A DNA stretch of 64,000 nucleotides from an uncultured Ardenticatenaceae bacterium (GTDB taxonomy: Bacteria > Chloroflexota > Anaerolineae > Promineifilales > Promineifilaceae), in contig CAYPHY010000009.1 in assembly GCA_964410625.1 (NCBI GenBank), positions 48,992-112,991 on the forward strand. Reading direction: 5' to 3'. A model generated the notes under the pieces. The model was not told the DNA's origin and searched no databases. It saw nothing but the letters and a program-made list of their open reading frames with translations. The translations under genes and the position numbers were made by a program. Of this stretch, positions 1,484-61,348 are shown piece after piece (position 1 is the stretch's first letter; the number at the start of each line of letters is the position of its first letter).

Positions 1484-1619
1484 TGAAGTAGGCAGTAGTG
1501 AGTTGACAGTGGGCAGTTGACGGTAAGCAGTAGTTGTTTATGCTCCGGGCCGGCTGCCGACTGTGAGCGCTGTACTCAGCGCCGACTACCAAGCATTGTT
1601 CTCAATACCGCCAACTAAG

Positions 1620-2114
1620 ATGGACTATCAACTCGATGAACTAAAAACCGAGGATTGGCCCGCTGTGCGGGCGATTTATGAGGCGGGGATTGCCACCGGG
1701 CAGGCGACCTTTGAGACGGCCGTGCCTGCATGGGAGTCCTGGGACGCCGCACACCGCGCCGATTGCCGCCTGGTCGCCCGGCATGATGGCCAGGTCATTG
1801 GTTGGGCTGCGCTTAGCCCAGTCTCCAGCCGCTGTGTCTACGGCGGAGTGGCCGAAGTCAGCGTCTACGTTGATCCGGCGTGGAAAGGAAGAGGTGTGGG
1901 TAAGCGATTGTTGCAAGCCCTGGTCGCCGCTTCGGAGGAGGCTGGGTTGTGGACGTTGCAAGCGAGCATCTTCCCTGAAAATGTTGCCAGCGTGCGTCTA
2001 CATCACAATTGCGGCTTCCGCACTGTGGGAACGCGAGAGCGATTGGGACAACAGTATGGCCGCTGGCGCGACGTCGTTTTGCTAGAACGGCGTAGCAGCG
2101 TCGTGGGTGTATGA
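1620..2114 (+). CDS. GNAT N-acetyltransferase, phosphinothricin/methionine-sulfoximine acetyltransferase-like
   Basis: WPAVRAIYEAGIATGQATFET...VYGGVAEVSVYVDPAWKGRGVGKRLL...ASIFPENVASVRLHHNCGFRTVGTRERLGQQYGRWRDVVLLERR matches the PAT-type GNAT pattern. I prefer the ATG at 1620 over the GTG at 1563 given in the track. Confidence 0.85.
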   Translation: MDYQLDELKTEDWPAVRAIYEAGIATGQATFETAVPAWESWDAAHRADCRLVARHDGQVIGWAALSPVSSRCVYGGVAEVSVYVDPAWKGRGVGKRLLQALVAASEEAGLWTLQASIFPENVASVRLHHNCGFRTVGTRERLGQQYGRWRDVVLLERRSSVVGV

Positions 2115-2117
2115 GTA

Positions 2118-3041
2118 GTGGAGGAAAAGAGAGTTGTCCAGGGACGGCCGTTCCTCAAATGGGCGGGGGGCAAGGCGCGGCTCTTGCCACAACTGGAAGC
2201 GTTGTTTCCGCCGGAGCTAAGCAACGGGGACATCCGCCGCTATGTGGAGCCGTTTGTTGGTAGTGGCGCCGTCTTTTTCCACATCGCCTCCTGCTATTCA
2301 ATTGAGGAGTTCCATCTGGCCGACGCCAATCCCGAATTGATCCTGCTCTATTGCACCATTCAGCAGGATGTAGAGGGCTTGATCGCCCAGTTGCAGCGTA
2401 TAGAACGGGATTACCGGTCGTTGACGGAGAACGGCCGCCACGATTATTACTATGCCGTTCGCCAGCAACTGAACAACCAACGAGCCACAACCGACTTCGG
2501 CAACTTCAGCCCGGCCTGGCTCGAACGGAGCGCTCAACTGCTCTTTCTCAACCGCACCGGCTACAATGGTCTTTTCCGCGTTAATGCCGCCGGCGAGTTT
2601 AATGTGCCGTTCGGCCGCTATAAAAACCCGACCATTTGCCAGCCGGAGCGACTGCGAACGGCCGCCCGCTTACTACAAAATGTGCAGATTCGACAGGCCC
2701 ATTTTGCTGAATGTGCCGACTTTGTAGACGAGCGCACATTTGTTTACTTTGATCCCCCCTACCGGCCGTTGAGCGCAACCGCCCATTTCACCGCTTATTC
2801 AACGCAGACCTTTGGCGACGACGAACAGCTTGAATTGGCAAGATTTTACTGGATGTTACACGGCCGCGGCGCCAAGTTGATGCTCAGCAATTCCGACCCA
2901 CAAAACACCGACCCCAACGACACCTTCTTTGAGCAGGCCTATGCTGGTTTTCGCCTGGAGCGCGTCCGGGCCAGCCGCCATATCAATAGCCAGCCAGACG
3001 GACGGGGGATGATCAATGAGCTGGTGATTTTGAATTGGTAA
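2118..3041 (+). CDS. Dam-family site-specific DNA (adenine-N6) methyltransferase (orphan)
   Basis: FLKWAGGKARLLPQL (SAM-binding N-terminus), NRTGYNGLFRVN and catalytic VYFDPPYRP motifs. No adjacent endonuclease gene. Confidence 0.9.
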   Translation: MEEKRVVQGRPFLKWAGGKARLLPQLEALFPPELSNGDIRRYVEPFVGSGAVFFHIASCYSIEEFHLADANPELILLYCTIQQDVEGLIAQLQRIERDYRSLTENGRHDYYYAVRQQLNNQRATTDFGNFSPAWLERSAQLLFLNRTGYNGLFRVNAAGEFNVPFGRYKNPTICQPERLRTAARLLQNVQIRQAHFAECADFVDERTFVYFDPPYRPLSATAHFTAYSTQTFGDDEQLELARFYWMLHGRGAKLMLSNSDPQNTDPNDTFFEQAYAGFRLERVRASRHINSQPDGRGMINELVILNW

Positions 3042-3050
3042 TGAGTGTGC

Positions 3051-6000
3051 ATGGCTTCCCTGATTCACAAGCTGGCTAACCAATCTTGGGCGTGGCTCTT
3101 ACTGGCTACGGCTTATGGCTTACCGCTCACTTCTCCGCTGTGGCGGTTGACGGCCGTTCCCTGTACCCACGACGGCCATCTCCATTACCATCGAGTCGCC
3201 GCCATGCGCTATGCCTGGGAGCAGGGGGTCTATTTTACGCGCTGGCTGCCCGATCTCGCCTTTGGCTACGGCTACCCCTTCTTCGTCTATCGCGAACCCG
3301 CGCCGCTGTATATGGCCTTGTGGCCGCATCTCCTCGGCGTTCCCCTTCCGGCGGCCGAAAATCTCTTTTACGCGCTGACCATCCTCGCCTGTGGCTGGTT
3401 CATGTTTCTCTGGGCCAACGATCTCTTCGGCCGTCGCGCCGCCTTGGTCGCCGCCGTCGCCTATATGTCCGCCCCCTACGTATTAATAGACGCGCTGGTT
3501 CGTGGCAACGCGCCGGAGTCGTTGGCGTTGCCGCTGTTCCCATTTTTGTTGTGGAGCGGCCGCCGCTGGCTGCTCGGCCGCCAATCGCGCTACTTGATTG
3601 CCGGCGTTCTTGGCCTGGCCTTGCTTTCGTTTGGTCACAACATCTCCACACTGATTTTTGCGCCGACGTTATTGGTTTATTTGCTGGCCGTTGGCTGGAT
3701 CAACCGCTTGCCGGTGAAGGCAATTCTCGGCCGAGTGGCATTGCTGACGGGGCTAGGGTTGGGTGTCGCTTTTTTCTATACCGGTGGGGCTTTGCTGGAG
3801 ATGGACCAGGTGACGCTGCAACAGTCCACCACCACCCGCAACAACGATTGGCGTTATAACTTCGCCAGTGTGGGCGAAATTCTCGCTCCGGTGGCGGCCG
3901 AAGACCCCAACCTGATCAATCCACCGTTGCCCTTCCGCCTGGGTTGGGTCTCGTTAGGGTTGGCTTTGCTCGGTTCAACGGGACTGTTGTGGTTGAGAGG
4001 GCAGGACTCGACTGAGCGCGAACGTCGCTTGCATATTCTGTTGATGATTCTGGCAACAATCGGCTATTTATTCATGGCGTTGCCGCTATCACGGCCGCTA
4101 TGGGAAGCGTTGCCACTGATTGATTTTGTGCAGTTCCCCTGGCGGTTTGTCGGCCGGGCGGCGTTGCCGGTTGCTTTTCTGGCGGGCGTCCCTTTTAGCG
4201 AATCATTTGTGGAGCGATTTGCCAAATCGCTCTACATAGCTGGGACGCGGACGAACGCGGACAAACGCGGCGGTGAGCACCGTTGGGTAAATGGAGCAGT
4301 ACTGCTGGCGACAGTACTGCTAGTGGCGGAAACTTTGCCCAATCTTTACCCTGCCTATTGCCAGGAAGCGCCGTACCCGACGATCACGGATGTCCATACT
4401 TATGAGCGTGTGACCGGGCTGGTTGGGGTTGACCCGGAAGGGAGCTATTTCCCGCGTACTGTTCGGCAACGGCCGCAAGGCTCAGCCTTAGAAGGAGCGT
4501 ATGAGCGTGGGAGATTGCCGCAGCGGTTTGATGGGACGGTATTGCCGGAGGGGGCGGCGATTGAAAGGGTGGAGTACCAGCCGCTGTCGGCCGTCGTCGA
4601 GCTAAACACACCAACGCCTTTCACGGCGCGTTATTTGAGCTTTGCTTTCCCTGGTTGGCAGGCGGAGGTTGATGGGCAAGGGGTGACGATTACGCCCGGC
4701 GACCCCGATGGCTTGATAACCTTTCCCGTACCCGCTGGAGCGCATACCATCGCTGTACGTTGGACAGCGACCCCCCTGCGTATAGCCCTGAGTGGTGTGA
4801 GTGGGTTGGCATTGTTGCTGACCGTTGCTGCCGCTGTCTGGTTCTCCCGGCGGCCGTTAGCCAGTGTTGCCCCTGTTCCGCTAAGCCGTTCTTCACCTTC
4901 TTTCCTGGTTATCGCTTTCCTTATAGCTTTTGGTCTACTGGCTTTGAAGCTGTTGGTCATCGACCGCATGGATAACCCCTTGCGCCGCACCGGCTCTCCC
5001 GTCGTTGACCAATCAACCGCACTACAGGCGGGAGAACTGCGGCTGGATGGCTATCACTTGAGCCGCGCGAACGTCCCCGCAGGGGAGACGTTTGATATTG
5101 AACTGGCCTGGACGGCTGTCGCCCGGCCGCAAGCTGAGTACCAATCAGCCGTCTCCCTGGTTGGGCCGGAGGGACTGACCTGGAGCGACAAAGATATTGC
5201 ACGGCCGCGCATTTACGAAGACGCCGCGCCGACGCACTTTTGGGAGCCAGGGCAATGGGCCTGGGATAGCCACGAAGTGCCGGTCTTGGCCGGTACGCCA
5301 CCAGGGGTTTATGATATTGTCGTCACCCTCTTTGATCTGGAGACGCTCCAGCCATTGACCGTCGTTGACTTGAACGGTGGGACAGTTGGCCCCACGGCCG
5401 TCGTCGGCCAACTGGAAGTAACCAACCCTGTCGAGCCGCCACACTTTACCCCACAATATCCTTTGCCCGATGGTGGGGCGGCCGTTGCCGGATTGGAGAT
5501 GCGCTTGCTTGGCTATAATCAGGACCGCACCGAGGCGATCCCTGGCGATATTGTCTTGCTAACCCTCTTTTGGGAGCGAGAGGGGGAGGCGGCCGCTTCC
5601 TTTACTCTCAGTCTGCTTGATGAGGCGGGGCAAAGCGTGCACTCGTGGGAACTGCCAATCACGCGACCCGATTTTCCGCCAGAACAATGGACGGCCGACC
5701 AACGCCTGCGCGGCCAATACCTGGTGCGTCTCCCTGCTTCGTTGGCCGACGGCCGTTACCAATTTCTACTTCAGGATACGCTGCCGCTCGGCGAGCTGTC
5801 TGTCACTGCCCCTGAGCGTTTATTCTCTCCGCCACCAATTGAGACACCGTTGACGGCCGATTTCATTGAAGCTACCGAGCCTGTTATCCAGTTATCTGGC
5901 TATACGCTCACTTCCGTTGATAATTCACAATTGACAATTGACAATTCACAATTACTAACGCTTGTCTGGCAATCTTTGGCCGAAACCGAAACCAGTTACC

Positions 6001-6251
6001 GCGTCTTTGTCCACGTGGTGGATGAGGCAGGGCAGATCGTCGCCCAATCTGACGGCGAACCGGCGAATTGGACACGGCCGACAACCAGTTGGACGGCCGG
6101 TGAATATATTGTTGATGAACACATACTAATGCTCCCCGCGGGCGTTCCTCCTGAGCAGCTATCTATCCGCGTTGGTCTCTATGATCCTGATAGCGGGCAA
6201 CGTTTGTTGACTGATGGGGGAGCGGCCGATTTCATTACGCTTGAACCATAG
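3051..6251 (+). CDS. Large polytopic membrane protein: N-terminal glycosyltransferase-like (GT-C/PMT/YfhO-like) multi-TM domain plus extracytoplasmic beta-rich repeats
   Basis: 1066-aa ORF (ATG at 3051; the track starts at the GTG at 3045). It has about 10 or more hydrophobic segments in the first ~420 aa, one further TM near aa 590-640, and a long soluble C-terminal region with repeated ...GY/LLGY...W motifs. The function is an inference. An in-frame heptamer-array insertion lies at 5916-5957. Confidence 0.7.
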   Translation: MASLIHKLANQSWAWLLLATAYGLPLTSPLWRLTAVPCTHDGHLHYHRVAAMRYAWEQGVYFTRWLPDLAFGYGYPFFVYREPAPLYMALWPHLLGVPLPAAENLFYALTILACGWFMFLWANDLFGRRAALVAAVAYMSAPYVLIDALVRGNAPESLALPLFPFLLWSGRRWLLGRQSRYLIAGVLGLALLSFGHNISTLIFAPTLLVYLLAVGWINRLPVKAILGRVALLTGLGLGVAFFYTGGALLEMDQVTLQQSTTTRNNDWRYNFASVGEILAPVAAEDPNLINPPLPFRLGWVSLGLALLGSTGLLWLRGQDSTERERRLHILLMILATIGYLFMALPLSRPLWEALPLIDFVQFPWRFVGRAALPVAFLAGVPFSESFVERFAKSLYIAGTRTNADKRGGEHRWVNGAVLLATVLLVAETLPNLYPAYCQEAPYPTITDVHTYERVTGLVGVDPEGSYFPRTVRQRPQGSALEGAYERGRLPQRFDGTVLPEGAAIERVEYQPLSAVVELNTPTPFTARYLSFAFPGWQAEVDGQGVTITPGDPDGLITFPVPAGAHTIAVRWTATPLRIALSGVSGLALLLTVAAAVWFSRRPLASVAPVPLSRSSPSFLVIAFLIAFGLLALKLLVIDRMDNPLRRTGSPVVDQSTALQAGELRLDGYHLSRANVPAGETFDIELAWTAVARPQAEYQSAVSLVGPEGLTWSDKDIARPRIYEDAAPTHFWEPGQWAWDSHEVPVLAGTPPGVYDIVVTLFDLETLQPLTVVDLNGGTVGPTAVVGQLEVTNPVEPPHFTPQYPLPDGGAAVAGLEMRLLGYNQDRTEAIPGDIVLLTLFWEREGEAAASFTLSLLDEAGQSVHSWELPITRPDFPPEQWTADQRLRGQYLVRLPASLADGRYQFLLQDTLPLGELSVTAPERLFSPPPIETPLTADFIEATEPVIQLSGYTLTSVDNSQLTIDNSQLLTLVWQSLAETETSYRVFVHVVDEAGQIVAQSDGEPANWTRPTTSWTAGEYIVDEHILMLPAGVPPEQLSIRVGLYDPDSGQRLLTDGGAADFITLEP
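5916..5957 (+). repeat. Heptamer array (ATTNACA x6) inserted in frame inside a CDS
   Basis: gttgata attcaca attgaca attgaca attcaca attacta. This is 42 nt = 14 codons and encodes VDNSQLTIDNSQLL. The same word family occurs in intergenic arrays at 31654-31688, 37644-37685 and 49984-50032. Confidence 0.8.
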
Positions 6252-6464
6252 AAATGCCTCTACGACCAGAAGATGCAGCCTGGGTTTCTTCGCTTATCCT
6301 CCCCGAATAAGTTGCTCATATATTTTTCTTACACAGCGTTTATTTCTTTCATATGTGCTTCCTTAGAATAGGGGATAGTTAGTGTTGACGTGGAACGCCC
6401 CCAATTGTGGAAGGGCTGAACAAATGAGAAAAACAAACAGTTACGTGTAAGTGGAGGTGTGAAT

Positions 6465-6914
6465 ATGAGAATGATTACCCGTTGGAACCCAACTCGTGAA
6501 GCGTTAGATCTATTTAACGAATTTGAGCGGCTGTTTGACCGCGCTTATCGCGGTAGCGTGGATACCCCGACTACCTGGGGTTTGGCGCTTGATGTGATTG
6601 AGCAAGATGAGCATTTCATCGTTAAGACTTCTGTACCTGGCATTAACCCCGACGATTTGAACATTACCCTAGAGGATAATGTTCTGACCATTCAGGGTGA
6701 GATGCAGTCTGAAGAAACCGCCAATGAGGGCAAATATCATCTGCGCGAGCGGCGTTATGGCAGCTTCGGCCGCACCTTGCGCTTCCCTGTTGCTGTCAAT
6801 GCCGACGCAGTAGAGGCCAACTATCACAATGGCGTCCTGTCGCTCACGGTTCCGAAGGCCGAGGAAGTGAAGCCAAAGCGCATCGCGATTAAGGCAAACG
6901 GTTCGCAAAGTTAA
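6465..6914 (+). CDS. Small heat-shock protein, Hsp20/alpha-crystallin family
   Basis: Alpha-crystallin domain: DVIEQDEHFIVKTSVPGINPDDLNITLEDNVLTIQGE...RERRYGSFGRTLRFP...GVLSLTVPK. GGAGG lies 7 nt upstream of the ATG at 6465. Confidence 0.92.
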   Translation: MRMITRWNPTREALDLFNEFERLFDRAYRGSVDTPTTWGLALDVIEQDEHFIVKTSVPGINPDDLNITLEDNVLTIQGEMQSEETANEGKYHLRERRYGSFGRTLRFPVAVNADAVEANYHNGVLSLTVPKAEEVKPKRIAIKANGSQS

Positions 6915-8619: not shown

Positions 8620-8660
8620 ACCCTCTTATTCTAGCCCTTTCTCCCCCATCTGCCGACCAA

Positions 8661-8697
8661 TCCTCTCCCCACTCCTCACTCCCCACTCTCCACTACT
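8661..8697. repeat. Heptamer array (NCCACTC x5, complement GAGTGGN)
   Basis: tcctctc cccactc ctcactc cccactc tccacta. It lies between the nth start and the stop of the wHTH regulator gene. Same word family as 15825-15915. Confidence 0.7.
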
Positions 8698-10254: not shown

Positions 10255-10279
10255 TTTAATCTCTCCTTTTCTGGAAACT

Positions 10280-10357
10280 GGTTTGCATTACAAACCATAT
10301 ACCGCACATTATAGAAGGAATGATAGTTTTTGTCAAGAACCGGTTTGCAGCACAAAC
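10280..10357 (-). promoter_or_regulatory. Two copies of the palindrome GGTTTGCA-N-ACAAAC(C) upstream of the membrane-protein/wHTH operon (candidate operators)
   Basis: GGTTTGCATTACAAACC at 10280-10296 and GGTTTGCAGCACAAAC at 10342-10357, 62 nt apart. They lie 26-100 nt upstream of the start at 10254. Confidence 0.35.
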
Positions 10358-10414
10358 TTATGGATAATGTAATTTATGGTGGGCAATATAAAAGTTGACT
10401 CTGAGGAAAACGTG

Positions 10415-11168: not shown

Positions 11169-12974
11169 TTATAAACGCGCACGTTTGACGCGTGTGTTGA
11201 TTTGTTGCAGAAGTGCGTCACGCACGGCCGTTCGCTCTTTTTCCCCCAAGCCCAACAACTCAAAAACAAGCTCATCCATCTCCCGGCGGTCGGGTTGGGC
11301 CAGTTCATAGCTCACCTCGCGCAACGGCCGTTCTGCCAGTCGGGCGAAGCTTTCCCCTAATGCGGCCGTTTGCTCTGACGTAAGTTGGCGCGGGTCGGGC
11401 AGGTACATATCCTCCAGTTCGTAGGAAGCTAACCACAGAACCCCTTCGCCAAAGTTGACCCGCCCCTGTAACTCACATTGTAGGGCAAACCAGGCACTAT
11501 TCAGCAAGGCCGCGGCCGCCAGCAAGGGGACATCGTTAGCGAGGTAAATCCCATATAATTGCTGGTCAATCAACAGAGGGGTGTCGAGTAAGGGAACAAA
11601 GTGGCGCTGCCAGATGCCTTTGGGCAGCACGAGATCGGCCGTTGCTTGCTCCGCTAACCCATACCAGGGACGGCGACCGGCACAGGTGCGTCGTCGGTCA
11701 ACTCCCTGCTGTTCGCCCCAGGCCAGGTAATTGGCTACGGCCGTGCCATGTAATTCAGCATCGGGCGGGATGACGAGGAGTTCGTGACCGCTGTGATGGG
11801 AGTGCAGGCGCAGATGTTCCACGTGGCGCAGCGACTTGAGCGCCGGTTGCCGGAAGGCAGGTTCGATGCCCCACCGTTCAATTGTTGCTTGATCCAGATA
11901 GAAGAAGGCGTTGGCCCCGGTGGTGAAGCCACGGCTAATGGTTGCCCAGCGCTTGAGCGGAACGAGCGCGGCCGTTTCCGCGCGACGCAAATGGAGATAA
12001 ACAGCCGGGGCGCGTAGTTTCGCTCCCCAGCGTTCACCGGCCGCCAACTCATCCTGACGCTGGACGCGCACGATGGCCGCTTCCGTTTGGCGGTCGTTTG
12101 CGGGGAGCAAGCGGCTGATCAGGCGCTCGACCGCGCCCACCCGCCGTTCATCAGCGGCCGTGTCGCCGAGCAACAGTTGTAGCGGCGCGGTCAATTGCAC
12201 CAATCGCACCAGGTTGTTGTTTCGCGCGGCCAGGTTGCTGCATTTTTCGAGGACAACCAGACAGGTGTTGACCCGCGCATCATCGAACCAGCGTTCAACC
12301 TTCGATTCAATGATGGCAACCAGGCGGAAATGATCAAGCAAGAACTGTTTCAGCGGTTGTCCATAGGCAACGTCGAGCCAACCATTAGGGACGATGAACC
12401 CCAATCGGCCGTTCTCGCGCAAGAAGGCCGCGCTATGCAGAAAGAAATAGGCATGTAGCCCGGCACGGCCGCCGAGCAACGCCTGCCAGGATGCGGGAAC
12501 CAGCGGCCGTCGTTCTGCCGCTGGAGAGGCTTCATGGGTAGGGAGGGTGAGTTGTTGCGCGGTCGTGGGGTCGAGGCGGCCGATCCATTCGGCGCGGGTA
12601 TAGGGTGGGTTGCCGATGATTGCGTCAAACGGGGGTAGGGCAGCGGCTTGCAGCGTGAAGAAGTTGGCCGGGATAATCTGGGCATGTGGCAGGTGGGTTT
12701 GGGCAGTTGCTGCCACTTGCGGGTCTAACTCAACGCCCGTCAACTGTTCCGCAGCTAGACCGGTTGGCGCGGAGGAGAGCCATTGTTGCCATTGAGTAGC
12801 CCGTTGTAACAACGCTCCCATGCCACAACTGGGATCAAGCACGCGCCCGACCGCTCCACGGAGGCAAAAACCGAGCAAAAGGTCAGCGACATGGGTTGGC
12901 GTCGCATATTGGCCCCAGGTGCGTTGCTTGTTGGTCACGGGTATAATGATGACACAGTCTTGAAAAGACAACAA
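11169..12974 (-). CDS. Gamma-class N6-adenine DNA methyltransferase (Eco57I/TaqI-like) with a large C-terminal specificity-like region; orphan
   Basis: Motif I VLDPSCGMGALL and motif IV IIGNPPYTR. 601 aa with no nuclease motif recognised and no adjacent restriction gene. The start codon is uncertain. Confidence 0.85.
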   Translation of the reverse strand: MLSFQDCVIIIPVTNKQRTWGQYATPTHVADLLLGFCLRGAVGRVLDPSCGMGALLQRATQWQQWLSSAPTGLAAEQLTGVELDPQVAATAQTHLPHAQIIPANFFTLQAAALPPFDAIIGNPPYTRAEWIGRLDPTTAQQLTLPTHEASPAAERRPLVPASWQALLGGRAGLHAYFFLHSAAFLRENGRLGFIVPNGWLDVAYGQPLKQFLLDHFRLVAIIESKVERWFDDARVNTCLVVLEKCSNLAARNNNLVRLVQLTAPLQLLLGDTAADERRVGAVERLISRLLPANDRQTEAAIVRVQRQDELAAGERWGAKLRAPAVYLHLRRAETAALVPLKRWATISRGFTTGANAFFYLDQATIERWGIEPAFRQPALKSLRHVEHLRLHSHHSGHELLVIPPDAELHGTAVANYLAWGEQQGVDRRRTCAGRRPWYGLAEQATADLVLPKGIWQRHFVPLLDTPLLIDQQLYGIYLANDVPLLAAAALLNSAWFALQCELQGRVNFGEGVLWLASYELEDMYLPDPRQLTSEQTAALGESFARLAERPLREVSYELAQPDRREMDELVFELLGLGEKERTAVRDALLQQINTRVKRARL

Positions 12975-13105: not shown

Positions 13106-13573
13106 ATGGCGGCCGACAAAATCTTATCCCAGAAACAGTTCTTACACACCCTGCCGGATGCAACTACTCCCCATTTGCCTCTGGAACTACAAGGGATTCA
13201 AGTGCGGCGACCGTGGCAATGGCTGATACAGCTACACTACGGCGACCCCAGCCTGCACTTTGAAGTTTCCCATGTCTCGCGGCTCAATGGCTGGGAGTTG
13301 GGTTTCCACTGCGAGTCACGCGATCACCAGCTAAATTATATCCTTCTGAAGGGATTTCAAGCGCATCTGGTGGAAATCAAAGATACGCTCGGTGATCAAA
13401 TAGAGGCGGAGATGTGGGACAAGGGCTGGACGAAGATATATGAAGTTTACCCAGGGAAAACAATGACAACGGAGTATCAGGCCAATGTCGGCCGTCGCCT
13501 GGCGGAAATCATTTGTTGCTTGCAGCCGATCTTTGCGGAGTTGAGGAGCGAGACTGAGAGACTGAGAGATTAG
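13106..13573 (+). CDS. Hypothetical protein
   Basis: 155-aa ORF with an ATG start and no recognisable motif. Its last 8 codons (SETERLRD) lie in one arm of the palindromic repeat at 13547-13612. Confidence 0.5.
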   Translation: MAADKILSQKQFLHTLPDATTPHLPLELQGIQVRRPWQWLIQLHYGDPSLHFEVSHVSRLNGWELGFHCESRDHQLNYILLKGFQAHLVEIKDTLGDQIEAEMWDKGWTKIYEVYPGKTMTTEYQANVGRRLAEIICCLQPIFAELRSETERLRD

Positions 13574-13612
13574 GAGATTATAGTCGCTCAGTCTCCCAGT
13601 CGCTCACTCTCT
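13547..13612. repeat. Octamer-word inverted repeat (GAGACTGA/GAGATTAG family) shared by two convergent gene ends
   Basis: The left arm is gagcgagactgagagactgagag. The reverse complement of the right arm is gagcgactgggagactgagcgac. A related copy sits inside leuS at 36433-36479, and a related array lies at 26808-26853. Confidence 0.8.
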
Positions 13613-17364: not shown

Positions 17365-17380
17365 ATGAACTCCGAAGAAA

Positions 17381-46096: not shown

Positions 46097-46139
46097 AGAT
46101 TATATCGGTAGTTTAGCCTCTTTTGGAGCAAGAACCAAG

Positions 46140-48860: not shown

Positions 48861-48888
48861 TTGTTAGAAAGTAGGCAGTAGGCAAAAT

Positions 48889-48954: not shown

Positions 48955-48973
48955 TATTTTCAAAGGAGTGACT

Positions 48974-49903: not shown

Positions 49904-49927
49904 TTGGTATAGAAATGTATGGTTTGG

Positions 49928-50032
49928 TGATGGTGGGTAAGCGGCAGGTGGCAAGTATCAGGTGGCGAGTGGCAGGTATGCCATTCACAATTGACCATTA
50001 ACCATTTACCGTTCACCATTAACCATTCGACA
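49928..50032 (+). repeat. 15 in-phase heptamers: TGGCNNG half-array followed by TTNACCA half-array
   Basis: tgatggt gggtaag cggcagg tggcaag tatcagg tggcgag tggcagg tatgcca ttcacaa ttgacca ttaacca tttaccg ttcacca ttaacca ttcgaca. It lies between the two permease genes. Confidence 0.85.
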
Positions 50033-50043
50033 GGAGTTTCGCT

Positions 50044-50982
50044 ATGGCAGCGACTACCACTCGCCAGGAAAGGGTTGCCTCCAAGCCAATATTAGATCGC
50101 AGCTTGAAGATCAAGCGGTTTGAGGTTGGGATCGGCCACCTGATTGTTTACATTATTCTGACTATCGGCGCGATTATCTTTTTTGCTCCGTGGGCGTGGA
50201 TGGTCTCCGCCTCTTTCCAGCCGCTGGGCGACATGTTTAACTGGCCGCCAACCTGGATTCCAGAGACATTCACGCTCAACAATTACCGCAACTTTCTTGC
50301 TGCCCAGGGATTCTGGCGCTGGATTTTGAATAGTGCGGTTTTGGCGATCAGCGTGTTGATCATCCAACTGATTGTCAATTCAATGGCCGCCTATGCCTTT
50401 GCCAAGCGCAATTTTCCGGGACGTGATTTTATATTTTTGATGATGCTTGGCACATTGATGATCCCTGGGCAGATTTATCTGATCCCCAATTACATCATCC
50501 TCCAGCATATCCCGCTTTTTAATGGCAACGACATCATGGGGATGGGCGGACATGGGTGGCTCGACTCTTACTGGGGGTTGATCGTGCCTTATGCCTTCAG
50601 CGTGTGGAGTGTTTTCTTCATGCGCCAATATATGAAGTCCATTCCCAATGAGTTGCTTGATGCGGCACGAATTGATGGGGCGTCGGAGTTTCGCATCTAC
50701 TGGCAGATCATGCTCCCTCTCTGTGTTCCCGTTTTGGCGGCACAGGCGATCTTCACCTTTACGTTTGTGTGGAATGATTTCTTCTGGCCGTTGATCGTGG
50801 TCAGCGACCAGGACTTGCGCACACTGCAACTGGGCCTGGCGCTCTTTGTGGTCAAGAATCGCACGGCCTGGGATGTGGTGATGGCCGGTTCGGTGCTTTC
50901 AACGTTGCCGATTTTGATCGTTTTCTTGCTCTTCCAGCGTTACTTCATTCGCGGCATTACGTTGACGGGAATGAAGGGATAG
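50044..50982 (+). CDS. Carbohydrate ABC transporter permease (MalG/UgpE-like)
   Basis: Six TM segments and the EAA loop LLDAARIDGASEFRIYWQIMLPL. Confidence 0.9.
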   Translation: MAATTTRQERVASKPILDRSLKIKRFEVGIGHLIVYIILTIGAIIFFAPWAWMVSASFQPLGDMFNWPPTWIPETFTLNNYRNFLAAQGFWRWILNSAVLAISVLIIQLIVNSMAAYAFAKRNFPGRDFIFLMMLGTLMIPGQIYLIPNYIILQHIPLFNGNDIMGMGGHGWLDSYWGLIVPYAFSVWSVFFMRQYMKSIPNELLDAARIDGASEFRIYWQIMLPLCVPVLAAQAIFTFTFVWNDFFWPLIVVSDQDLRTLQLGLALFVVKNRTAWDVVMAGSVLSTLPILIVFLLFQRYFIRGITLTGMKG

Positions 50983-51042
50983 GGTGGATTCAGGTGGATC
51001 GCGGCCGAATCAGGCAGAATGAATTCTGCCGCTGATACGGGA

Positions 51043-51061
51043 AACATGTTGAAAACATGTT
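51043..51061. promoter_or_regulatory. Direct repeat of the palindrome AACATGTT upstream of the amylase gene
   Basis: AACATGTT-gaa-AACATGTT, 27 nt upstream of the ATG at 51088. Preceded by the hairpin GGCAGAAT-ga-ATTCTGCC (51013-51030). Confidence 0.35.
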
Positions 51062-51087
51062 AACGGATGGAGCAATTGTAGCTGCTT

Positions 51088-53208
51088 ATGAACAGTTATT
51101 ATGTCAATAGGCGAGATTTTATACGATTGAGTTTGATTACCTCGGTCGCGGCCGTTGCTGCCGCTTGCCGACGAGCCGAGTCGGAGGTTGTTTCGCCAAC
51201 GGAAGCACCACCAACGGCCGAACCCAAACCCCAACCCACCGCCGTCGCTGAGGAAGAAGCGGCCGAGGCAGCCCCCGCTGGCCCAAGCTGTGAAGTCCAG
51301 CTTGGCAATGCCAGCGCCGACGTTTGGGCCTGGAGCACGCAACTGACGGGACAAGTGACCGGTCTGGAAGAGTGCCTGGCGGTGATGTTGCTGGTCAATG
51401 GGATGAATGTGGCGGTGGAGCAGGATGGTGAGAATTTTTCGGCCGACGTGCCACTGGTCGAGGGGGAAAACGAGGTGGCGGCCGTTTGTCAATGTGCGGA
51501 TGGAGAAGAGGGAACACCACAGATGGTTACATTTACCGGACGGCTGGCGCAGCGGCCGAAGGCGATGATCCGCCCCAGCCTGGAAGGGGAACAGTTGGTC
51601 CTGGATGGCACGGAGAGCCAGCCGGATGAGCGCGAAGGCAGCCCGATTGTGGAGTATATCTGGTCGGTGCGGCCAGGGAATCCGGCGGCCGTGCAGGTGG
51701 ATGGCGCGGAGTTCAGCGGTGAAGTCAGTGGCGAACGGATCAGCGTTGCGTTGCCGGACACGGATGGCGAGTATTATTTTAACCTGCGTGTCGTGGACGA
51801 GAACGGCAACGAGGACCGCAGCGGGACCTATGTGGAAGTGCGGGATGGGGTGGTGCGTATTCCCAATTATGATGTGGAACACCCGGCCTGGATTGACAGC
51901 GCAGTTGTCTATGGCACGATCCCGCGTAATTTCGGCAGCCCCGCTTTCCAGGCCGTCACCGACCGGCTGGATTATCTGCAAGAGCTGGGCATCACCGCCC
52001 TCTGGCTGGCCCCGGTCAATGTCTCTCCCCCTGGCGACTATGGCTATGCGGTGGTGGATTACTTTGAATTGAATCCACGCTATGGAACGAAAGAGGATTT
52101 TAAGCGGATGGTGGATGAGGCCCATGCGCGGGGGATTCGTGTGTTGATGGATTTGGTCCCAAACCATTCGTCGGCCGAGCATCCCTACTATCGGGATGCG
52201 CTGAACAACGGCAAGCAGTCCCACTATTGGGAGTTCTATGATCGCGACGTGAATGGGATGCCAACCCATTATTTCGATTGGACGCATCTGCCCAACCTGA
52301 ACTACGAAAATCCCGAAGTGCGGCGCTGGATGCTGGAAGCCTCGGCCTATTGGGTGCGCGAGTTTGACATTGACGGCTACCGCGTGGATGTGGCCTGGGG
52401 CGTGACGGAACGACGGCCGGAGTTTTGGATGGAGTGGCGGCATGAGCTAAAGCGGATTAAGCCGGATGTGTTTTTGTTGGCCGAGGCCAGCGCCCGCGAT
52501 CCGTTCTATTTCGACAACGGCTATGATGTTGCTTATGACTGGACGCTCGATCTGGGCCATTGGGCCTGGGAATTGGTCTGGGATTCTAACCAGCACACGC
52601 TACTGACTTATAACCTGAAGACGGTCTTGCTCAACGAGCCGCGCGGCTACCATCCCGACGCGCTGATCTTCCGCTTCCTGAACAACAACGACACCGGCCC
52701 GCGTTTCATCAGCAATCACGGCGAAGGGATGACGCGGGTGTCTACGGCGTTGTTGCTGACCTTGCCGGGTGTGCCTTGTATCTATACGGCCGATGAAGTG
52801 GGCGAATTTTTCTCCCCTTACTTTGACCCCAACCCACTATCTTGGGATGAGAACTTCCCCGGCCTGCGTGATTACCACAAACAACTCATCGCCTTACGCA
52901 AGGAAGTGCCTAGCCTCCATTCGCGCCAGTGGCAGTTATTAAACGTGGAACCGCGCCAGCAACTGTTTGGCTATCTCCGTTATCTGGAAGGGAATGAGCA
53001 GCCGGTCGTGGTCTTACTCAACTTTTTTGATCAAGAACTGGAAGCAGAAGTTCCAATCCCTGAAGGGTTCCAGGAGCAGTTGGCTGGTGCAACGTGGACT
53101 GATTTGCTGAACGGCGAAACGGTCACGATTACGGATGCGGCCGCGGTGCGTGTGCCAATCGGCCGCTTCGGTGCGCGTATCCTGGCCCCGCAAGATCGGA
53201 GAGCATAG
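51088..53208 (+). CDS. Tat-exported lipoprotein alpha-amylase-family enzyme (GH13) with an N-terminal beta-sandwich region
   Basis: Twin-arginine signal NRRDFIRLSLITSVAAVAAAC. GH13 regions: MDLVPNHS, GYRVDVAW, FLLAEA, FLNNND. Confidence 0.9.
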   Translation: MNSYYVNRRDFIRLSLITSVAAVAAACRRAESEVVSPTEAPPTAEPKPQPTAVAEEEAAEAAPAGPSCEVQLGNASADVWAWSTQLTGQVTGLEECLAVMLLVNGMNVAVEQDGENFSADVPLVEGENEVAAVCQCADGEEGTPQMVTFTGRLAQRPKAMIRPSLEGEQLVLDGTESQPDEREGSPIVEYIWSVRPGNPAAVQVDGAEFSGEVSGERISVALPDTDGEYYFNLRVVDENGNEDRSGTYVEVRDGVVRIPNYDVEHPAWIDSAVVYGTIPRNFGSPAFQAVTDRLDYLQELGITALWLAPVNVSPPGDYGYAVVDYFELNPRYGTKEDFKRMVDEAHARGIRVLMDLVPNHSSAEHPYYRDALNNGKQSHYWEFYDRDVNGMPTHYFDWTHLPNLNYENPEVRRWMLEASAYWVREFDIDGYRVDVAWGVTERRPEFWMEWRHELKRIKPDVFLLAEASARDPFYFDNGYDVAYDWTLDLGHWAWELVWDSNQHTLLTYNLKTVLLNEPRGYHPDALIFRFLNNNDTGPRFISNHGEGMTRVSTALLLTLPGVPCIYTADEVGEFFSPYFDPNPLSWDENFPGLRDYHKQLIALRKEVPSLHSRQWQLLNVEPRQQLFGYLRYLEGNEQPVVVLLNFFDQELEAEVPIPEGFQEQLAGATWTDLLNGETVTITDAAAVRVPIGRFGARILAPQDRRA

Positions 53209-53224
53209 GAAGCATAAATTCAAT

Positions 53225-53290
53225 CCACGAATCTACACGAATTTTCATGAACAGAAGCCAATATTCGTGTAGATTCGTGAGAATTCGTGG
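53225..53290. repeat. CACGAAT-family inverted-repeat element
   Basis: CCACGAATCTACACGAATTTTCATGAA, loop cagaagccaat, then ATTCGTGTAGATTCGTGAGAATTCGTGG. Confidence 0.85.
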
Positions 53291-53398
53291 ATCGCTTTAG
53301 GAGTTTTCACGGGCGAATGCACACCAAAAGCGGTGAAAATTGAGTTTATCAGCGTTTGTCCGCGTTCGTCCGCGTCCTATTTTCAGGAGAGAAAAGCC

Positions 53399-60396: not shown

Positions 60397-60485
60397 ACAC
60401 GTTGAACACGAATTGGCGCAAATGACACGAATTTTAGATTCTATTTTCGTAAATTTGCACTCAAAAATTATGCCATTCGTGTTGA
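60397..60485. repeat. CACGAAT-family degenerate element
   Basis: acacgttgaacacgaattggcgcaaatgacacgaatttt ... ttttcgtaaatttgcactcaaaaattatgccattcgtgttg. Confidence 0.6.
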
Positions 60486-60508
60486 GTATATAGAAGGAGT
60501 AAAACGTA

Positions 60509-61258
60509 ATGGCTAACGTTGAAGGAAAAGTAGCAATTGTCACTGGCGCGAGTTCGGGCATCGGCCGTTCTTGTGCGCTGGTGTTGGCGGAGCGTGGGGC
60601 AAAAGTGGTTGTCTCTGATGTGAGTGTTTCCGGCGGTGAGGAAACTGTCAATTTAATCACTCAGGCCGGTGGTGACGCGATCTTTGTCCGCGCCGATGTC
60701 AGCTCGGCCGAGGATGTGGAAGCGTTAGTAAACCGGACGGTTGAGCAGTACGGCCGCCTGGACATCGCTGTCAACAACGCCGGGATCGGTGGCGAAGCGG
60801 CGCCGACTGGTGAGTACACCGTAGAAGGGTGGCGGCGAGTGATTGATATCAACCTGATCGGCGCCTTTCTCTGTATGCACTACCAGATTCCGCGCATGTT
60901 GGAGAGTGGCGGTGGGGCTATCGTCAATATGGCTTCTATTTTGGGTTCGGTTGGTTTCCCCGGCTCCTCCGCTTATGTTGCCGCCAAACATGGGTTGTTG
61001 GGGCTGACCAAATCGGCCGCGCTGGAGTATGCCACGTCTGGCATTCGCATCAACTCCGTCGGCCCAGCCTTCATTTACACACCGCTGATCGCTGAGATGG
61101 GGGAAGAGGGGCATAACATGCTCATCCAGGCGCATCCTATCGGCCGTTTGGGTGAACCGGAAGAGGTCGCTTATCTGGTGGCCTGGCTTTGCTCGGATGA
61201 AGCCTCTTTTGTGACCGGCAGCTATTATCTGGTGGATGGCGGTTACACGGCACAGTAG
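60509..61258 (+). CDS. Short-chain dehydrogenase/reductase (classical SDR)
   Basis: TGASSGIGRS cofactor motif, NNAG, and the catalytic S...YVAAK. Confidence 0.92.
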   Translation: MANVEGKVAIVTGASSGIGRSCALVLAERGAKVVVSDVSVSGGEETVNLITQAGGDAIFVRADVSSAEDVEALVNRTVEQYGRLDIAVNNAGIGGEAAPTGEYTVEGWRRVIDINLIGAFLCMHYQIPRMLESGGGAIVNMASILGSVGFPGSSAYVAAKHGLLGLTKSAALEYATSGIRINSVGPAFIYTPLIAEMGEEGHNMLIQAHPIGRLGEPEEVAYLVAWLCSDEASFVTGSYYLVDGGYTAQ

Positions 61259-61280
61259 TGACTGTCCTTTATGAATATAA

Positions 61281-61348
61281 AGCTCACGCAAGGGCGCAAA
61301 GGTCGCTAAGTTTTTTAAGCTTTGCGCCTTAGCGTTCTTTGCGTGAGC
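61281..61348. repeat. GCGCAAAG-family inverted-repeat element (copy 3 of 3)
   Basis: AGCTCACGCAAGGGCGCAAAGGTCGCTAAGttttttAAGCTTTGCGCCTTAGCGTTCTTTGCGTGAGC. Confidence 0.9.

Follow-up and report, generated by a model that had tools for sequence, protein, structure and literature searches.

Small non-coding insertion elements of several families appear to have colonised spacers between genes, and some protein surface loops, in this Anaerolineae-like member of the Chloroflexota. We analysed a 64,000-nt stretch of its DNA, here called the window, in which the elements form discrete, dispersed units, sometimes nested or in frame within genes. That colonisation of this kind took place, and that the window copies are gene-less, MITE- or REP-like derivatives of cassettes with a GxxExxY nuclease gene, later remodelled by slippage, we put at about an even chance; that the elements were mobile, and by which mechanism, is what we infer.

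Tandem-repeat detection by TRF (period 6-12, at least 2.5 copies) finds 50 arrays in the window, or 7.8 per 10 kb, against 0-4 (mean about 1) in each of 20 dinucleotide shuffles. Arrays account for 12.4% of intergenic bases versus 0.94% of coding bases, CACGAAT-N2-3-CACGAAT is found 15 times where 0.01 would be expected, and an inverted-repeat search returns these elements as the longest inverted repeats of the window. Elements consist of 3-5 words in tandem, and most also contain an inverted copy of that array; the two together would let DNA or RNA fold into a long hairpin.

The original prediction was partly confirmed: the observation is real yet overstated. Arrays occur everywhere it had placed them, and its statement that families differ in their words and have a common architecture stands. 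That nearly every spacer above 60 nt contains one is too strong, since strict TRF detects arrays in 17 of the 32 spacers of at least 60 nt, and the tally reaches about 22 of 32 once hairpins below the TRF threshold are added. A LacI-type operator palindrome at 46056-46097 was left out of this count. An inverted run follows in about two thirds of arrays; seven are direct only, with folding z-scores near 0 (1487-1535, 8661-8697, 26808-26853, 28112-28153, 31494-31570, 43964-44001, and 53346-53376). Nor are arrays exclusively intergenic: some lie in frame inside leuS, a terminase gene, and a membrane-protein gene. The proposed eight or more families collapse to 2 classes. Class I (period 9-10) uses the words CACGAAT, CACGGAT, CGCGAAT, CGCRGAT, CGCAAAG, and GCAGAGG, with z-scores of -6 to -13; class II (period 7-8) comprises G/T-rich heptamers and octamers, whose hairpins score -3.5 to -6.4. 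Word labels are approximate; the element at 22079-22144 has no exact CACGAAT, its words being AACGAAT, CGCGAAT, and CGCGGAT, and elements labelled GCGCAAAG hold one exact GCGCAAAG per arm.

The class I elements are as follows, with a strand where one was assigned.

20761-20836, hairpin of 3 + 3 words (GA)CACGAAT, period 9, in a convergent spacer; 30-nt arms, 90% complementary; z -10.6
22075-22148, hairpin of AACGAAT, CGCGAAT, and CGCGGAT words, between glnA and an amidohydrolase gene
25262-25325, degenerate hairpin (AACGAAT/CACGAAA ... ATTCGCG) in a divergent spacer
26854-27031, nested pair, a complete CCACGGAT hairpin (26908-26996) in the loop of an outer GACACGAAT hairpin; z -10.1 and -8.6
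34952-35040, CCACGGAT hairpin directly past the leuS stop codon; right arm with two ATCTGTG (C-to-T) words
43197-43268, CCACGAAT hairpin with a 10-nt period, ahead of a GNAT gene
53223-53292, second copy of the CCACGAAT-CT(G/A) variant, aligned with 43197-43268
60397-60485, decayed hairpin; z -2.8
43869-43953, CGCAAAG-family hairpin, copy 1, CTCACGCAAAG GCGCAAAG nnCGCTAAG ... inverted
48886-48957, CGCAAAG-family hairpin, copy 2, in a sugar ABC operon, separating its solute-binding and permease genes
61278-61350, CGCAAAG-family hairpin, copy 3; z -6.5
28112-28153, plus strand, four ACGCRGAT words, direct only; on the minus strand, the Shine-Dalgarno sequence and start codon of a small gene follow about 10 nt beyond the array
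43964-44001, minus strand, ACGCRGAT array, opposite in orientation to that at 28112-28153, immediately ahead of the Shine-Dalgarno sequence and ATG of the ABM gene (44008)
53344-53376, minus strand, CGCGGAC/CGCTGAT array preceding the Shine-Dalgarno sequence and ATG of an alcohol dehydrogenase gene
4245-4270, plus strand, word array GACGCGGACGAACGCGGACAAACGC within the coding sequence for a 1068-aa membrane protein

Several of these are copies of one another. The CCACGAAT-CT(G/A) variant is present twice (43197-43268 and 53223-53292), and its family has therefore been dispersed; a 98-bp tandem duplication (43212-43406) repeats the right half of the first copy together with the Shine-Dalgarno sequence and start of the GNAT gene. 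In alignment, the three CGCAAAG hairpins have a common loop and sharp boundaries, and a 25-26-nt stretch is near-identical between the array within the membrane-protein gene and the one ahead of the alcohol dehydrogenase gene (at 53350).

Class II contains the following elements.

13547-13612, octamer hairpin, GAGACTGA ... inverted, spanning two convergent gene ends; z -3.9
15825-15915, heptamer hairpin, AGTGGNN
17370-17458, heptamer hairpin, GGATGAR, filling the spacer from the PIN-TRAM stop to the cysS Shine-Dalgarno sequence; z -6.4
49904-50031, 128-nt insertion, a GGTGGCA-type heptamer run then a CCATTNA run, with G-T pairing, from the permease 1 stop to the permease 2 Shine-Dalgarno sequence
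36430-36482, minus strand, GGAGACTG octamer hairpin, in frame in leuS, in a variable loop of the editing domain
35552-35621, ATTGCGG heptamer hairpin, in frame in leuS; retained, though altered, in the 87% relative L341
31493-31570, plus strand, direct run of 11 degenerate heptads (GGTGGCA ... GTGATTG), GT phase conserved
31925-32000, plus strand, composite direct module [GGATGAR]4[NAATKGT]5 where genes of the terminase cluster meet; second copy at 32360-32424
33287-33462, plus strand, GCAGAGGA, NAATKGT, and GTGGCAG arrays, in frame in the terminase large-subunit gene
1487-1535, plus strand, direct AGTNNNC heptads, no inverted partner; z 0.8
8656-8697, minus strand, direct AGTGRGG-type heptads, no inverted partner
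37636-37690, AATTRTG heptamer array adjoining the leuS start, two heptads (14 nt) longer than in L341
26807-26853, plus strand, direct GAGATTGR octamers overlapping the end of a lysine aminomutase gene

Array density is 6-9 per 10 kb in relatives at 85-87% protein identity and 0-1.6 in those at 72-82%. The 128-nt block lies between TAA and AGGAGTTT; at the same place the 82%-identity relative L343 has a 12-nt junction, TAG-AGGAGTTTGACC-ATG, and three relatives have 9-12 nt between the two permease genes, a fourth 88 nt. By this sequence comparison with a sister lineage, at least one element is an insertion. The spacer holding CGCAAAG copy 2 is occupied in L343 by an unrelated plain hairpin. 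The glnA-spacer hairpin is orthologous but rearranged in the 85% relative L123, with arms that have changed in compensated fashion and are still complementary, and is absent from the 72% relative L124; the GGATGAR hairpin at 17370-17458 is conserved in L123 (6137-6203). In-frame copies occupy three loops of leuS, in two relatives. The 7-8-nt class behaves like the 9-10-nt class in insertion, slippage, and in-frame copies. It is less well explained; sampled loci revealed no enrichment across other phyla, and no gene association was found. The earlier proposal of a common generating mechanism rather than a mobile sequence proves half right: local slippage does act on the arrays, so dispersal and local generation both contribute, while individual families are dispersed, discrete, and inserted.

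The class I vocabulary extends far beyond this organism. The CACGAAT triple occurs at 120 or more genome loci from no fewer than 15 phyla. Arms mostly have three words; CCACGAAT is the outermost in 92% of them, and the outer end reads CCAC or CTCAC, preceded by TTAR. CACGAAT arrays have an inverted partner in 61 of 149 cases, versus 0 of 43 and 0 of 53 for permuted control words, which form perfect tandem repeats only. CACGAAT loci are also enriched in related words, and a 25-base CGCAAAG arm recurs in 53 metagenome contigs with GC of 0.36-0.63. Words are complementary between arms and inter-word spacers often are not; across phyla, the words, and not the spacers between them, are on sequence grounds the conserved part.

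Elsewhere, the same word types, specifically CACGAAT, CGCAGAT, CGCAAAG, CACAGAG, and CGCAGAGG, bracket genes of the GxxExxY family (TIGR04256/PF13366, PDDEXK_3). These encode a small predicted PD-(D/E)XK nuclease with D...(D/E)xK residues intact in the motif columns. The cassettes are roughly 450 bp long, with word arrays at both ends and the gene within, and the link was seen at loci L073, L046, L103, L367/368, L069, and L032. Among viral and plasmid loci picked by the protein alone, not by arrays, the association recurs at both of the 2 viral loci and in most of the 8 plasmid records: of the latter, 3 are clearly bracketed by inverted arrays, 1 is so in part, 1 has a complete hairpin beside the gene, 2 have direct rather than inverted repeats, and 1 shows nothing clear. 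The sequences show GxxExxY genes bracketed by arrays, and the 9-10-nt families, whose words recur in at least 15 phyla, are no local invention. The gene is present at only 4 of the 120 CACGAAT genome loci listed, where no further neighbour recurs, Pfam names covering the three largest clusters only. GxxExxY is absent from the window and from six short contigs of close relatives, so its link to the window elements consists of shared words only. PF13366 is catalogued as "unknown, multiple transfers between divisions" (PMC3424549), and the literature searched yielded no published link between GxxExxY and flanking arrays. The flanking arrays could instead be operators or RNA structures that regulate the gene, rather than ends for movement.

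On the preferred reading, the nuclease or a partner protein, encoded at another place in the genome, would bind the words as repeated sites and, acting in trans, would move or copy the elements. After insertion, slippage would add or remove whole words, and arm-to-arm correction together with slippage would reshape arrays into new word families. The insertions that survive would be those lying between one gene's stop codon and the following ribosome-binding site, or those in protein loops that tolerate them, and they would act mainly as mRNA hairpins.

Such a role could also be primary. Host regulatory elements under selection, recruited rather than selfish, might form hairpins in mRNA to stabilise the cistrons upstream, define processing sites, or attenuate read-through, or might serve as site arrays for a global nucleic-acid-binding protein; we regard this as rather unlikely. 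It would fit the precise filling of stop-to-Shine-Dalgarno spacers, the hairpin 3' of the sugar ABC solute-binding gene with a different hairpin there in a relative, the persistence of some hairpins at orthologous sites, and the scarcity of CACGAAT arms elsewhere in divergent spacers (12 arms) relative to convergent (41) and co-directional ones (54). ACGCRGAT arrays, sense-oriented about 10 nt ahead of the Shine-Dalgarno sequences of three unrelated genes, are placed like the TAACTGA repeats of Beggiatoaceae (PMC4679880). Yet the sense RNA of minus-strand operons bears destabilising A-C mismatches, and the antisense folds better in 5 of 6; a downstream T-run of at least 4 accompanies only 2 of 15 hairpins, and separate, conserved classical terminators exist. 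Coding-region and nested copies are hard to account for in this way, and sister lineages at 72-82% identity manage without the elements.

Alternatively, and in our view improbably, the arrays were made in place: slipped-strand mispairing would multiply a word, intrastrand template switching (quasi-palindrome correction) or snap-back synthesis would invert the run, nothing would move, and likeness of words would reflect mutational bias. Whole-word copy-number differences between relatives, as beside leuS, agree with this, as do the rearranged yet complementary arms of the orthologous glnA spacer, the degenerate heptads that keep only their GT phase, G-T mismatches that track the G-rich strand irrespective of gene direction, and the absence of target-site duplications. 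Slippage is also credited for heptamers, the commonest long simple repeats of many bacteria, in the account of Mrazek et al. 2007 that PMC4679880 gives. In-place origin sits poorly with identical composite elements at several loci that share loop and sharp ends, with a complete element nested in another's loop, and with a 128-nt block at a junction that has no seed sequence in a sister lineage. Nor does it predict a three-word, 25-base arm of fixed order in 53 unrelated metagenome contigs, or control words that never form hairpins.

Known repeat systems offer partial parallels. REP/BIME elements of E. coli can stabilise upstream mRNA, the classic case being malE-malF. The likeness in placement that had been suggested is fair, with intercistronic and 3' positions that include the one after the sugar ABC solute-binding gene. 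Like the REP/BIME/REPIN elements of Enterobacteria and Pseudomonas, ours are short extragenic palindromes in many copies, mostly past genes or between cistrons, without target-site duplication, and single, head-to-head, or tail-to-tail, the last two arrangements being found for REPs as well (PMC3733652). That ordinary REP/REPIN elements, mobilised by a RAYT (an IS200/IS605-type Y1 transposase) encoded outside the window, would account for them is nevertheless very doubtful. Neither a GTAG nor a CGTC tag is present at their CCAC or CTCAC ends; arms are 25-40 nt long, 3-5 iterated words of 7-8 nt in place of a simple 5-13-bp stem; and the sole recurrent gene beside the listed loci encodes the PD-(D/E)XK protein GxxExxY, not a Y1 HUH enzyme. 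As had been stated, the window holds no RAYT, and Pfam scans of its roughly 50 ORFs detected no transposase, integrase, HUH protein, or reverse transcriptase. An assembly or sequencing artefact is scarcely credible: short-read Logan assemblies of the same organism do break at the repeats, but independent assemblies of relatives carry the same elements at orthologous sites, isolate and long-read genomes of other phyla contain them, and some lie in frame inside conserved genes.

With bacterial MITEs (Correia elements, Nezha, TIMEs), the elements have in common a non-coding body of 60-260 bp, terminal inverted repeats, nested insertions, and gene-less forms that outnumber gene-carrying ones. They differ in having no DDE transposase partner, in internally iterated inverted repeats, and in cross-phylum conservation of words rather than of whole sequences. 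None of the 43 hairpins examined in the window is flanked by a target-site duplication, which excludes standard DDE transposition and bears out the view that the families do not reduce to one MITE with such duplications. CGTC-tagged REPs and Rickettsia palindromic elements (RPE) are likewise palindromes of several phyla, with in-frame copies in protein-coding genes and no dedicated transposase known (PMC3733652); ours have another sequence, no CGTC tag, word-array arms, and a candidate associated gene. Direct repeats of the heptamer TAACTGA, found in Beggiatoaceae, cyanobacteria, and Bacteroidetes, also place a specific short word in tandem across scattered lineages, often closely preceding start codons, and no transfer mechanism is known; unlike ours, they are almost only direct, with no associated gene reported (PMC4679880, which also cites Mrazek et al. 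2007 for long simple sequence repeats of 5-11-nt units). TAACTGA itself is absent from the window. Compared with GxxExxY cassettes, the window has arrays alone.

The cyanobacterial frame once proposed does not fit. STRR, which Mazel et al. (1990) are said to have described, are reportedly tandem heptanucleotides of non-coding DNA in several sequence families, and their AGT-containing units resemble the AGTNNNC heptads of the window. The present host, however, belongs to the Chloroflexota and is not a cyanobacterium, many window arrays are paired with an inverted copy, the STRR words CCCCAGT, TTGGTCA, and CAACAGT are never tandem in the window, and HIP1 is absent from it. Several of the word families match both ends of tiny nuclease-gene cassettes known from many bacterial phyla; this match points to a little-described kind of selfish DNA, which these elements may represent, and away from ordinary terminators and cyanobacterial repeats.

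The intergenic DNA of the window carries numerous arrays of short tandem words, which make up 12.4% of the 7.8 kb of intergenic sequence versus 0.94% of coding DNA when curated gene calls are used. Unfiltered TRF output comprised 94 rows in the window; a strict filter (period 6–12, at least 2.5 copies) gave 50 arrays, against 0–4 per shuffle in 20 dinucleotide-preserving shuffles. At the coordinates listed in the original prediction, the sequence is as described there, and its broader statements need trimming. It placed such arrays in nearly every spacer longer than about 60 nt: the arrays are real, but only 17 of the 32 spacers of at least 60 nt hold one under the strict filter, or about 22 of 32 once weaker hairpins are included. 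It also had the run of words usually followed by its inverse; many hairpins do occur, but for seven of the arrays it listed, no inverted partner exists. Some word labels were loose, in that 22079–22144, assigned to CACGAAT, holds AACGAAT, CGCGAAT, and CGCGGAT but no CACGAAT.

The arrays fall into 2 classes. Class I has a period of 9–10 nt, built from a conserved word of 7–8 nt and a free spacer of 2–3 nt; its words in the window are CACGAAT, CACGGAT, CGCGAAT/AACGAAT, ACGCRGAT, and the CGCAAAG/CGCTAAG set. A typical class I element spans 65–90 nt, with three or four words per arm, and its outermost word reads CCAC... or CTCAC.... Class II has a period of 7–8 nt and G/T-rich, often degenerate units (RGTRGNN, such as AGTGGAT and GGTGGCA; NAATKGT; GGATGAR; GAGAYTGR; GCAGAGGA); in long runs the GT dinucleotide alone stays in phase, and in hairpins the 5' arm is always the purine-rich one. 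Word-array elements are the longest inverted repeats of the window, with folding energies 6–13 SD below shuffles for the 9–10-nt class and 3.5–6.4 SD below for heptamer and octamer hairpins. One palindrome was left out of the repeat families: 46056–46097, a perfect 20 + 20-nt palindrome of TAAACGTTTACG units in the divergent spacer upstream of a LacI-family regulator gene (46140–47165), looks like a doubled LacI-type operator. Elsewhere, a spacer devoid of word arrays (10255–10414) contains two copies of a ~20-nt motif (GGTTTGCA..ACAAAC) about 90 nt apart, which may be an operator pair for the adjoining unannotated small genes.

The host is a member of the Chloroflexota: for three window proteins, the best named homologues all belong to that phylum (Anaerolineae, Caldilineaceae, Promineifilaceae, Ardenticatenaceae). 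The genes are ordinary housekeeping ones, including cysS, leuS, glnA, riboflavin synthesis, a pullulanase, a sugar ABC operon, two DNA methyltransferases, and a PIN/Phd pair, and the window has no transposase, integrase, RAYT, reverse transcriptase, or GxxExxY gene. Three sets of genes deserve mention in their own right:

2118–3041 and 11169–12974, DNA adenine methyltransferase genes, one D12/Dam-like and one Eco57I/N6_Mtase-like, the latter with no obvious nuclease partner
18976–20926, about 2 kb comprising a PAS histidine kinase, a response regulator, and a CACGAAT hairpin
31430–34162, plus strand, isolated phage-type terminase pair (PHROGs): small subunit 31999–32382, large subunit 32429–34162

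GATC recurs at 10-nt spacing inside some CACGGAT arrays (34966–34990). The middle region is a gene-level insertion adjoining the hairpin: in L123, a contig of a relative with 85% protein identity, the amidohydrolase gene joins the PIN-TRAM gene directly (4672–5070). The terminase strand contains 12% C and 47% G, and its third codon positions 4.5% C versus 37.8% in an adjoining host gene; codons end nearly always in G or T; foreign origin, a history of single-strand replication, or deaminase pressure could account for this bias.

Class I words recur far beyond this clade. Three CACGAAT words separated by 2–3 nt occur at no fewer than 120 loci among GTDB species representatives; the matches listed include Bacteroidota (about a dozen Flavobacterium isolates), Verrucomicrobiota, Planctomycetota, Acidobacteriota, Chloroflexota (with Herpetosiphon giganteus DSM 589), several proteobacterial classes, Spirochaetota, and others. 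Raw match counts were rejected as evidence on their own, since in the viral collection two permuted control words also give 43 and 52 matches versus at least 120 for CACGAAT. What distinguishes CACGAAT arrays is their variable spacers, their CCAC end, and their inverted partner. Control-word arrays are perfect tandems, with identical spacers in 41 of 43 and 51 of 53 cases and an inverted partner in none; among 149 CACGAAT arrays, 127 have variable spacers, 135 have C as the preceding base, and 61 have an inverted array within 300 nt. The outer end is CCAC in 92% of 145 arms, preceded by T-T-A-R; that of the CGCAAAG family is CTCAC. Across 43 complete hairpins (element length 49–261 nt, median 89), words agree between arms and spacers often do not (30–65% at spacer positions); it is therefore the word itself that is conserved rather than mere pairing ability, and this pattern of conservation points to a putative sequence-specific recognition. 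Several other readings of CACGAAT were rejected: it does not have the spacing of a sigma-54 promoter, is too weakly similar to a DnaA box or parS half-site, and resembles a Mu or Tn3 end in style only, with no target duplication.

Among loci fetched for CACGAAT, tandem CGCGAAT, CACAGAT, CACTAAT, CGCAAAG, and CGCAGAT lie far above average 7-mers, and class II words stand at background level, with 0–1 tandem pairs in 815 kb of other-phylum loci. A three-word CGCAAAG arm (25 specified bases) was found in 53 metagenome contigs with a GC content of 0.36–0.63, as 25 hairpins, 5 tail-to-tail pairs, and 23 solitary arms; in one metagenome contig, a GTGGCAG hairpin adjoins such an arm. CACGAAT arms are found chiefly in convergent (41 arms) and co-directional (54) spacers and seldom in divergent ones (12). 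Six contigs from related metagenome samples (L345, L356, L358, L359, L370, and L376) share an element of about 130 nt, with a CGCAAAG-type end on the left, a CTTGGCG-type end on the right, and a conserved interior (…GGGACTAGCGGGAAAGTGGCTTGTCGGTTGTGACC…) between them; it is a multi-copy family with non-identical ends. In L193, a viral contig with a Mu-like prophage, complete CCACGAAT hairpins fill the junctions between terminase and portal genes and between portal and next gene, so phages, too, are colonised by the elements. A BLAST search with model elements found no match among annotated plasmids and phages, and no description of the elements was found in the literature searched by sequence word and by topic.

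One gene family is linked to these arrays. When 1238 ORFs lying within 2.5 kb of arrays were clustered all against all, the genome set yielded no large family; one three-member cluster was PF13366 (PDDEXK_3), and after all screens it was the sole linked-gene candidate left. Near the at least 120 genome loci no other recurrent gene family was found (Pfam names were taken for the three largest clusters), no linked transposase was kept in the neighbourhoods of the comparison loci L113 and L032, and ORFs between array pairs in viral contigs were Mu-like terminase and portal genes alone. All array-associated members are TIGR04256 ‘GxxExxY proteins’, predicted PD-(D/E)XK nucleases whose D...(D/E)xK columns show either no change or conservative substitutions. 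A sequence comparison with the PDB returned no solved relative, and the only other resemblance was a faint Cas4-like match. The sole mention in the literature searched assigns PF13366 no known function and lists ‘multiple transfers’ between divisions (PMC3424549).

In several loci the gene sits between the arrays. We scored bracketing as at least 2–3 tandem words of the C[AG]CNNA[TGA] type, with period 8–11, inverted on the two sides of a TIGR04256 gene, and found it at L073, L046, L103, L398, L399, L401, L403, and L404. In L073 (Verrucomicrobiota), a 128-codon gene is exactly bracketed: AACCACAAAT-AGA-CACGAAT-TTA-CACGAAT runs up to the ATG, and ATTCGTG-TCC-ATTCGTG-TTT-ATTCGTGGTT follows the stop; the layout is the same in L046. 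In L103 (Chloracidobacterium), the left array (GCCGCAGAT-AA-ACGCAAAT-AA-ACGCAGAT) and the right array (ATCTGCGT-TT-ATCTGCGT-CC-ATCTGCGG) use words of the window's ACGCRGAT family, and the gene lies 5 kb away from the pattern by which the locus was selected. CGCAAAG-type arrays stand on both sides of the genes in L367 and L368, and complete hairpins on both sides in L069 (Chloroflexia) and L032 (Nitrosomonas); these four and the L103 member were found by a profile search of all fetched loci. Words of the GCAGAGG/CACAGAGG type also flank GxxExxY genes.

Loci chosen through the protein alone, comprising two viral contigs and eight plasmid or chromid records from seven phyla, confirm the link at the level of sequence. 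Inverted arrays bracket the gene in both viral contigs, with CGCAAAAG/CGCTAAAG words in one versus CACAAAG/CACGAAG in the other. Among the plasmid records, three of the eight have clear inverted arrays (CACAGAG(G) in Bernardetia and Bacteroides, and a single CACGGAT word in Treponema), two are flanked on either side by direct repeats that contain arrays, and one is without clear arrays; Sphingomonas has a three-word left array sharing 7-mers with the gene's 3' end, and in Gemmatirosa a complete CGCAGAGG hairpin adjoins the gene. The arrays might regulate the GxxExxY gene instead of serving as its ends; the genes themselves lie between unrelated housekeeping genes, such as fabD and fabG in Sphingomonas. 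Gene-carrying forms with matching word arrays thus exist outside the window; the window matches the bracketing pattern by class I word identity alone, and neither it nor the short contigs of its relatives hold a GxxExxY gene. A viral contig, L130, has at 5848–6668 a 247-codon ORF without a Pfam match, bracketed by inverted CACGAAT arrays (AACACGAAT three times just before the ATG, ATTCGTG three times with GTT just after the stop), which may represent another type of cargo gene carried by these ends.

A mainly regulatory role for the elements is unlikely in our estimation. The window also has classical terminators (a GC-rich stem followed by a T-run), separate from the word arrays; the three for which relatives were compared are conserved. 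Examples are:

23626–23662, classical terminator
37741–37782, classical terminator
38621–38660, classical terminator

Word-array hairpins are not canonical intrinsic terminators, because a T-run of at least 4 within 12 nt follows in only 2 of 15 hairpin/direction combinations; several have a T-run before and an A-run after. The tRNA/tmRNA scan of the window was empty, and no Rfam 15 family reached its gathering score there; with a permissive cutoff, the only models to appear were miRNA precursors far below threshold, as for generic long hairpins. As a test of selection on RNA, we also compared G-U and A-C asymmetry with gene direction, a comparison that mutational strand bias confounds. Of 19 elements, 15 fold better on the plus strand than on the minus strand and one is a tie, regardless of the direction of flanking genes; over the whole window, the plus strand is also the G-rich one, and sense RNA of minus-strand operons therefore carries A-C mismatches. 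The better-folding strand thus tracks the G-rich, probably leading, strand rather than the sense strand, which argues against strong selection on an RNA fold and fits either mutational strand bias or folding of the plus strand as single-stranded DNA. For solitary arms in other genomes, orientation relative to GC skew was not significant in the genome set; significance was confined to a viral set in which one phage clade predominates.

The elements are discrete, dispersed, and changing. Three CGCAAAG elements align over about 70 nt, with similarity ending abruptly at the stem foot and the loop AAGTTTTTTAAGC in two of them; two CCACGAAT elements represent one variant; a near-identical 25–26-nt array lies in a membrane-protein gene (4245–4270) and in a spacer (53350–53376); and a complete CCACGGAT hairpin sits inside the loop of a GACACGAAT hairpin. 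Insertion is clearest at the permease–permease junction of the sugar ABC operon (47370–53208), where L343 (82% identity) reads TAG-AGGAGTTTGACC-ATG and the window reads TAA, a 128-nt heptamer hairpin, then AGGAGTTTCGCT-ATG. Among the relatives, this spacer measures 9–12 nt in three and 88 nt in the closest (89% identity); in the window its length is 140 nt. In leuS, sites set by alignment with Thermus LeuRS and ten homologues reveal in-frame word-array hairpins at three variable loops in both the window and L341 (87%), with content differing at two of the three. The terminase large-subunit gene holds GCAGAGGA, NAATKGT, and GTGGCAG runs, translated as ...RAEEQRSRGAEERMVNGEGLTVNG... and ...GEWQVAGGKWQVAG.... 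The hairpin in the glnA–amidohydrolase spacer is present in an 85% relative and absent in a 72% relative; between the window and the former, a word pair has changed on both arms (CGCGAAT:ATTCGCG vs CACGAAT:ATTCGTG) and word order is altered. Array abundance is lineage specific, at 7.8 per 10 kb in the window, 6–9 in relatives with 85–87% protein identity, and 0–1.6 in those with 72–82%.

Purely local generation of the arrays is, on our reckoning, distinctly unlikely as a whole, and likelier for class II. Local change does occur: by the leuS start, the heptamer array of the window has two more units than that of L341, and at 34952–35040 the same C-to-T change in two adjacent words of one arm is as expected if adjoining words are homogenised. 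A 98-bp tandem duplication at 43212–43406 (98% identity) spans the right half of a CCACGAAT hairpin, a Shine-Dalgarno sequence, and the first 18 nt of a GNAT gene, whose start consequently occurs twice; it is probably due to recent recombination or slippage between word arrays and could be an assembly effect.

Small palindromic repeats are common in bacterial genomes, and the elements are of this type, known in kind. They are similar in placement and behavior to REP/BIME, CGTC-REP/RPE, and MITEs and, by the defining features tested, belong to none of them. A RAYT system is very improbable: such a system typically has a REP-flanked gene for a Y1 HUH transposase and a GTAG or CGTC tag at the palindrome end, whereas here the outer end is CCAC or CTCAC, neither tag is present, and about 50 window ORFs gave no match to Y1_Tnp or any other transposase; the original prediction had likewise stated that the window has no RAYT. 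Terminal inverted repeats on a short noncoding element are shared with MITEs, but a DDE partner and flanking target-site duplications are absent; no duplication was found at the filled site 49904–50031, and at the 43 hairpins direct flank matches are at chance (5–14 of 43 per position), so the families do not collapse into one ordinary MITE. Inverted flank matches at these hairpins reach 1–4 nt outwards. The proposed likeness to cyanobacterial STRR repeats does not hold in the strict sense: the host belongs to the Chloroflexota, and the window has no tandem dimers of CCCCAGT, TTGGTCA, or CAACAGT and no HIP1 (GCGATCGC). Rickettsia palindromic elements, which have no sequence relation to those of the window, likewise insert in frame into tolerant loops, as seen here in leuS, terminase, and membrane-protein genes. 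For one tandem word recurring across phyla, the closest published parallel comes from Beggiatoaceae, cyanobacteria, and Bacteroidetes, whose TAACTGA repeat has likewise spread in a way not yet explained (PMC4679880); the window has no tandem TAACTGA.

That the arrays are artefacts is a negligible prospect. Short-read Logan assemblies of what is apparently the same organism (SRR11702770, SRR11702771) stop 42 nt upstream of the IclR gene, at a point inside a nested hairpin (compared with window 27003–27046), and contigs of close relatives are mostly 1.5–7 kb.

We give an even chance to a joint account in which the window's class I elements are derivatives of GxxExxY cassettes that lack the gene. 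These elements would spread in trans, comparable to MITEs with insertion sequences or REPINs with RAYTs; slippage and correction between arms would then diversify the words, and selection would spare harmless positions, namely the stretch from stop codon to next ribosome-binding site and protein loops. Insertion without target duplication might, speculatively, proceed through a small PD-(D/E)XK dimer that cuts an extruded cruciform in a structure-specific way. More tentatively, and with the balance tipping against it, inverted arrays of 7–8-nt words together with the ~125-residue GxxExxY predicted nuclease may constitute an undescribed class of very small selfish elements in many phyla. The nuclease would recognise its own word arrays, possibly as an extruded cruciform, move the cassette without target duplication, and also mobilise many gene-less hairpins, such that in some lineages, this Chloroflexota clade among them, most spacers would be occupied, and protein loops as well.

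We know of no mover for most palindromic-repeat families outside RAYT-REP. Shared words tie these hairpins to a widespread, uncharacterised family of predicted nucleases, making the binding and cutting of arrays a testable question. For the genomes concerned (Chloroflexota, Bacteroidota, Planctomycetota-Verrucomicrobiota, and Acidobacteriota), the elements matter for annotation and expression prediction, since they place strong hairpins inside operons; they also break short-read assemblies and insert in frame in essential genes. If the proposed link is true, a protein family annotated in thousands of genomes would gain a role, the same 7-nt words in tandem across distant phyla would be accounted for, and a further mechanism of DNA mobility without target duplication would be added.
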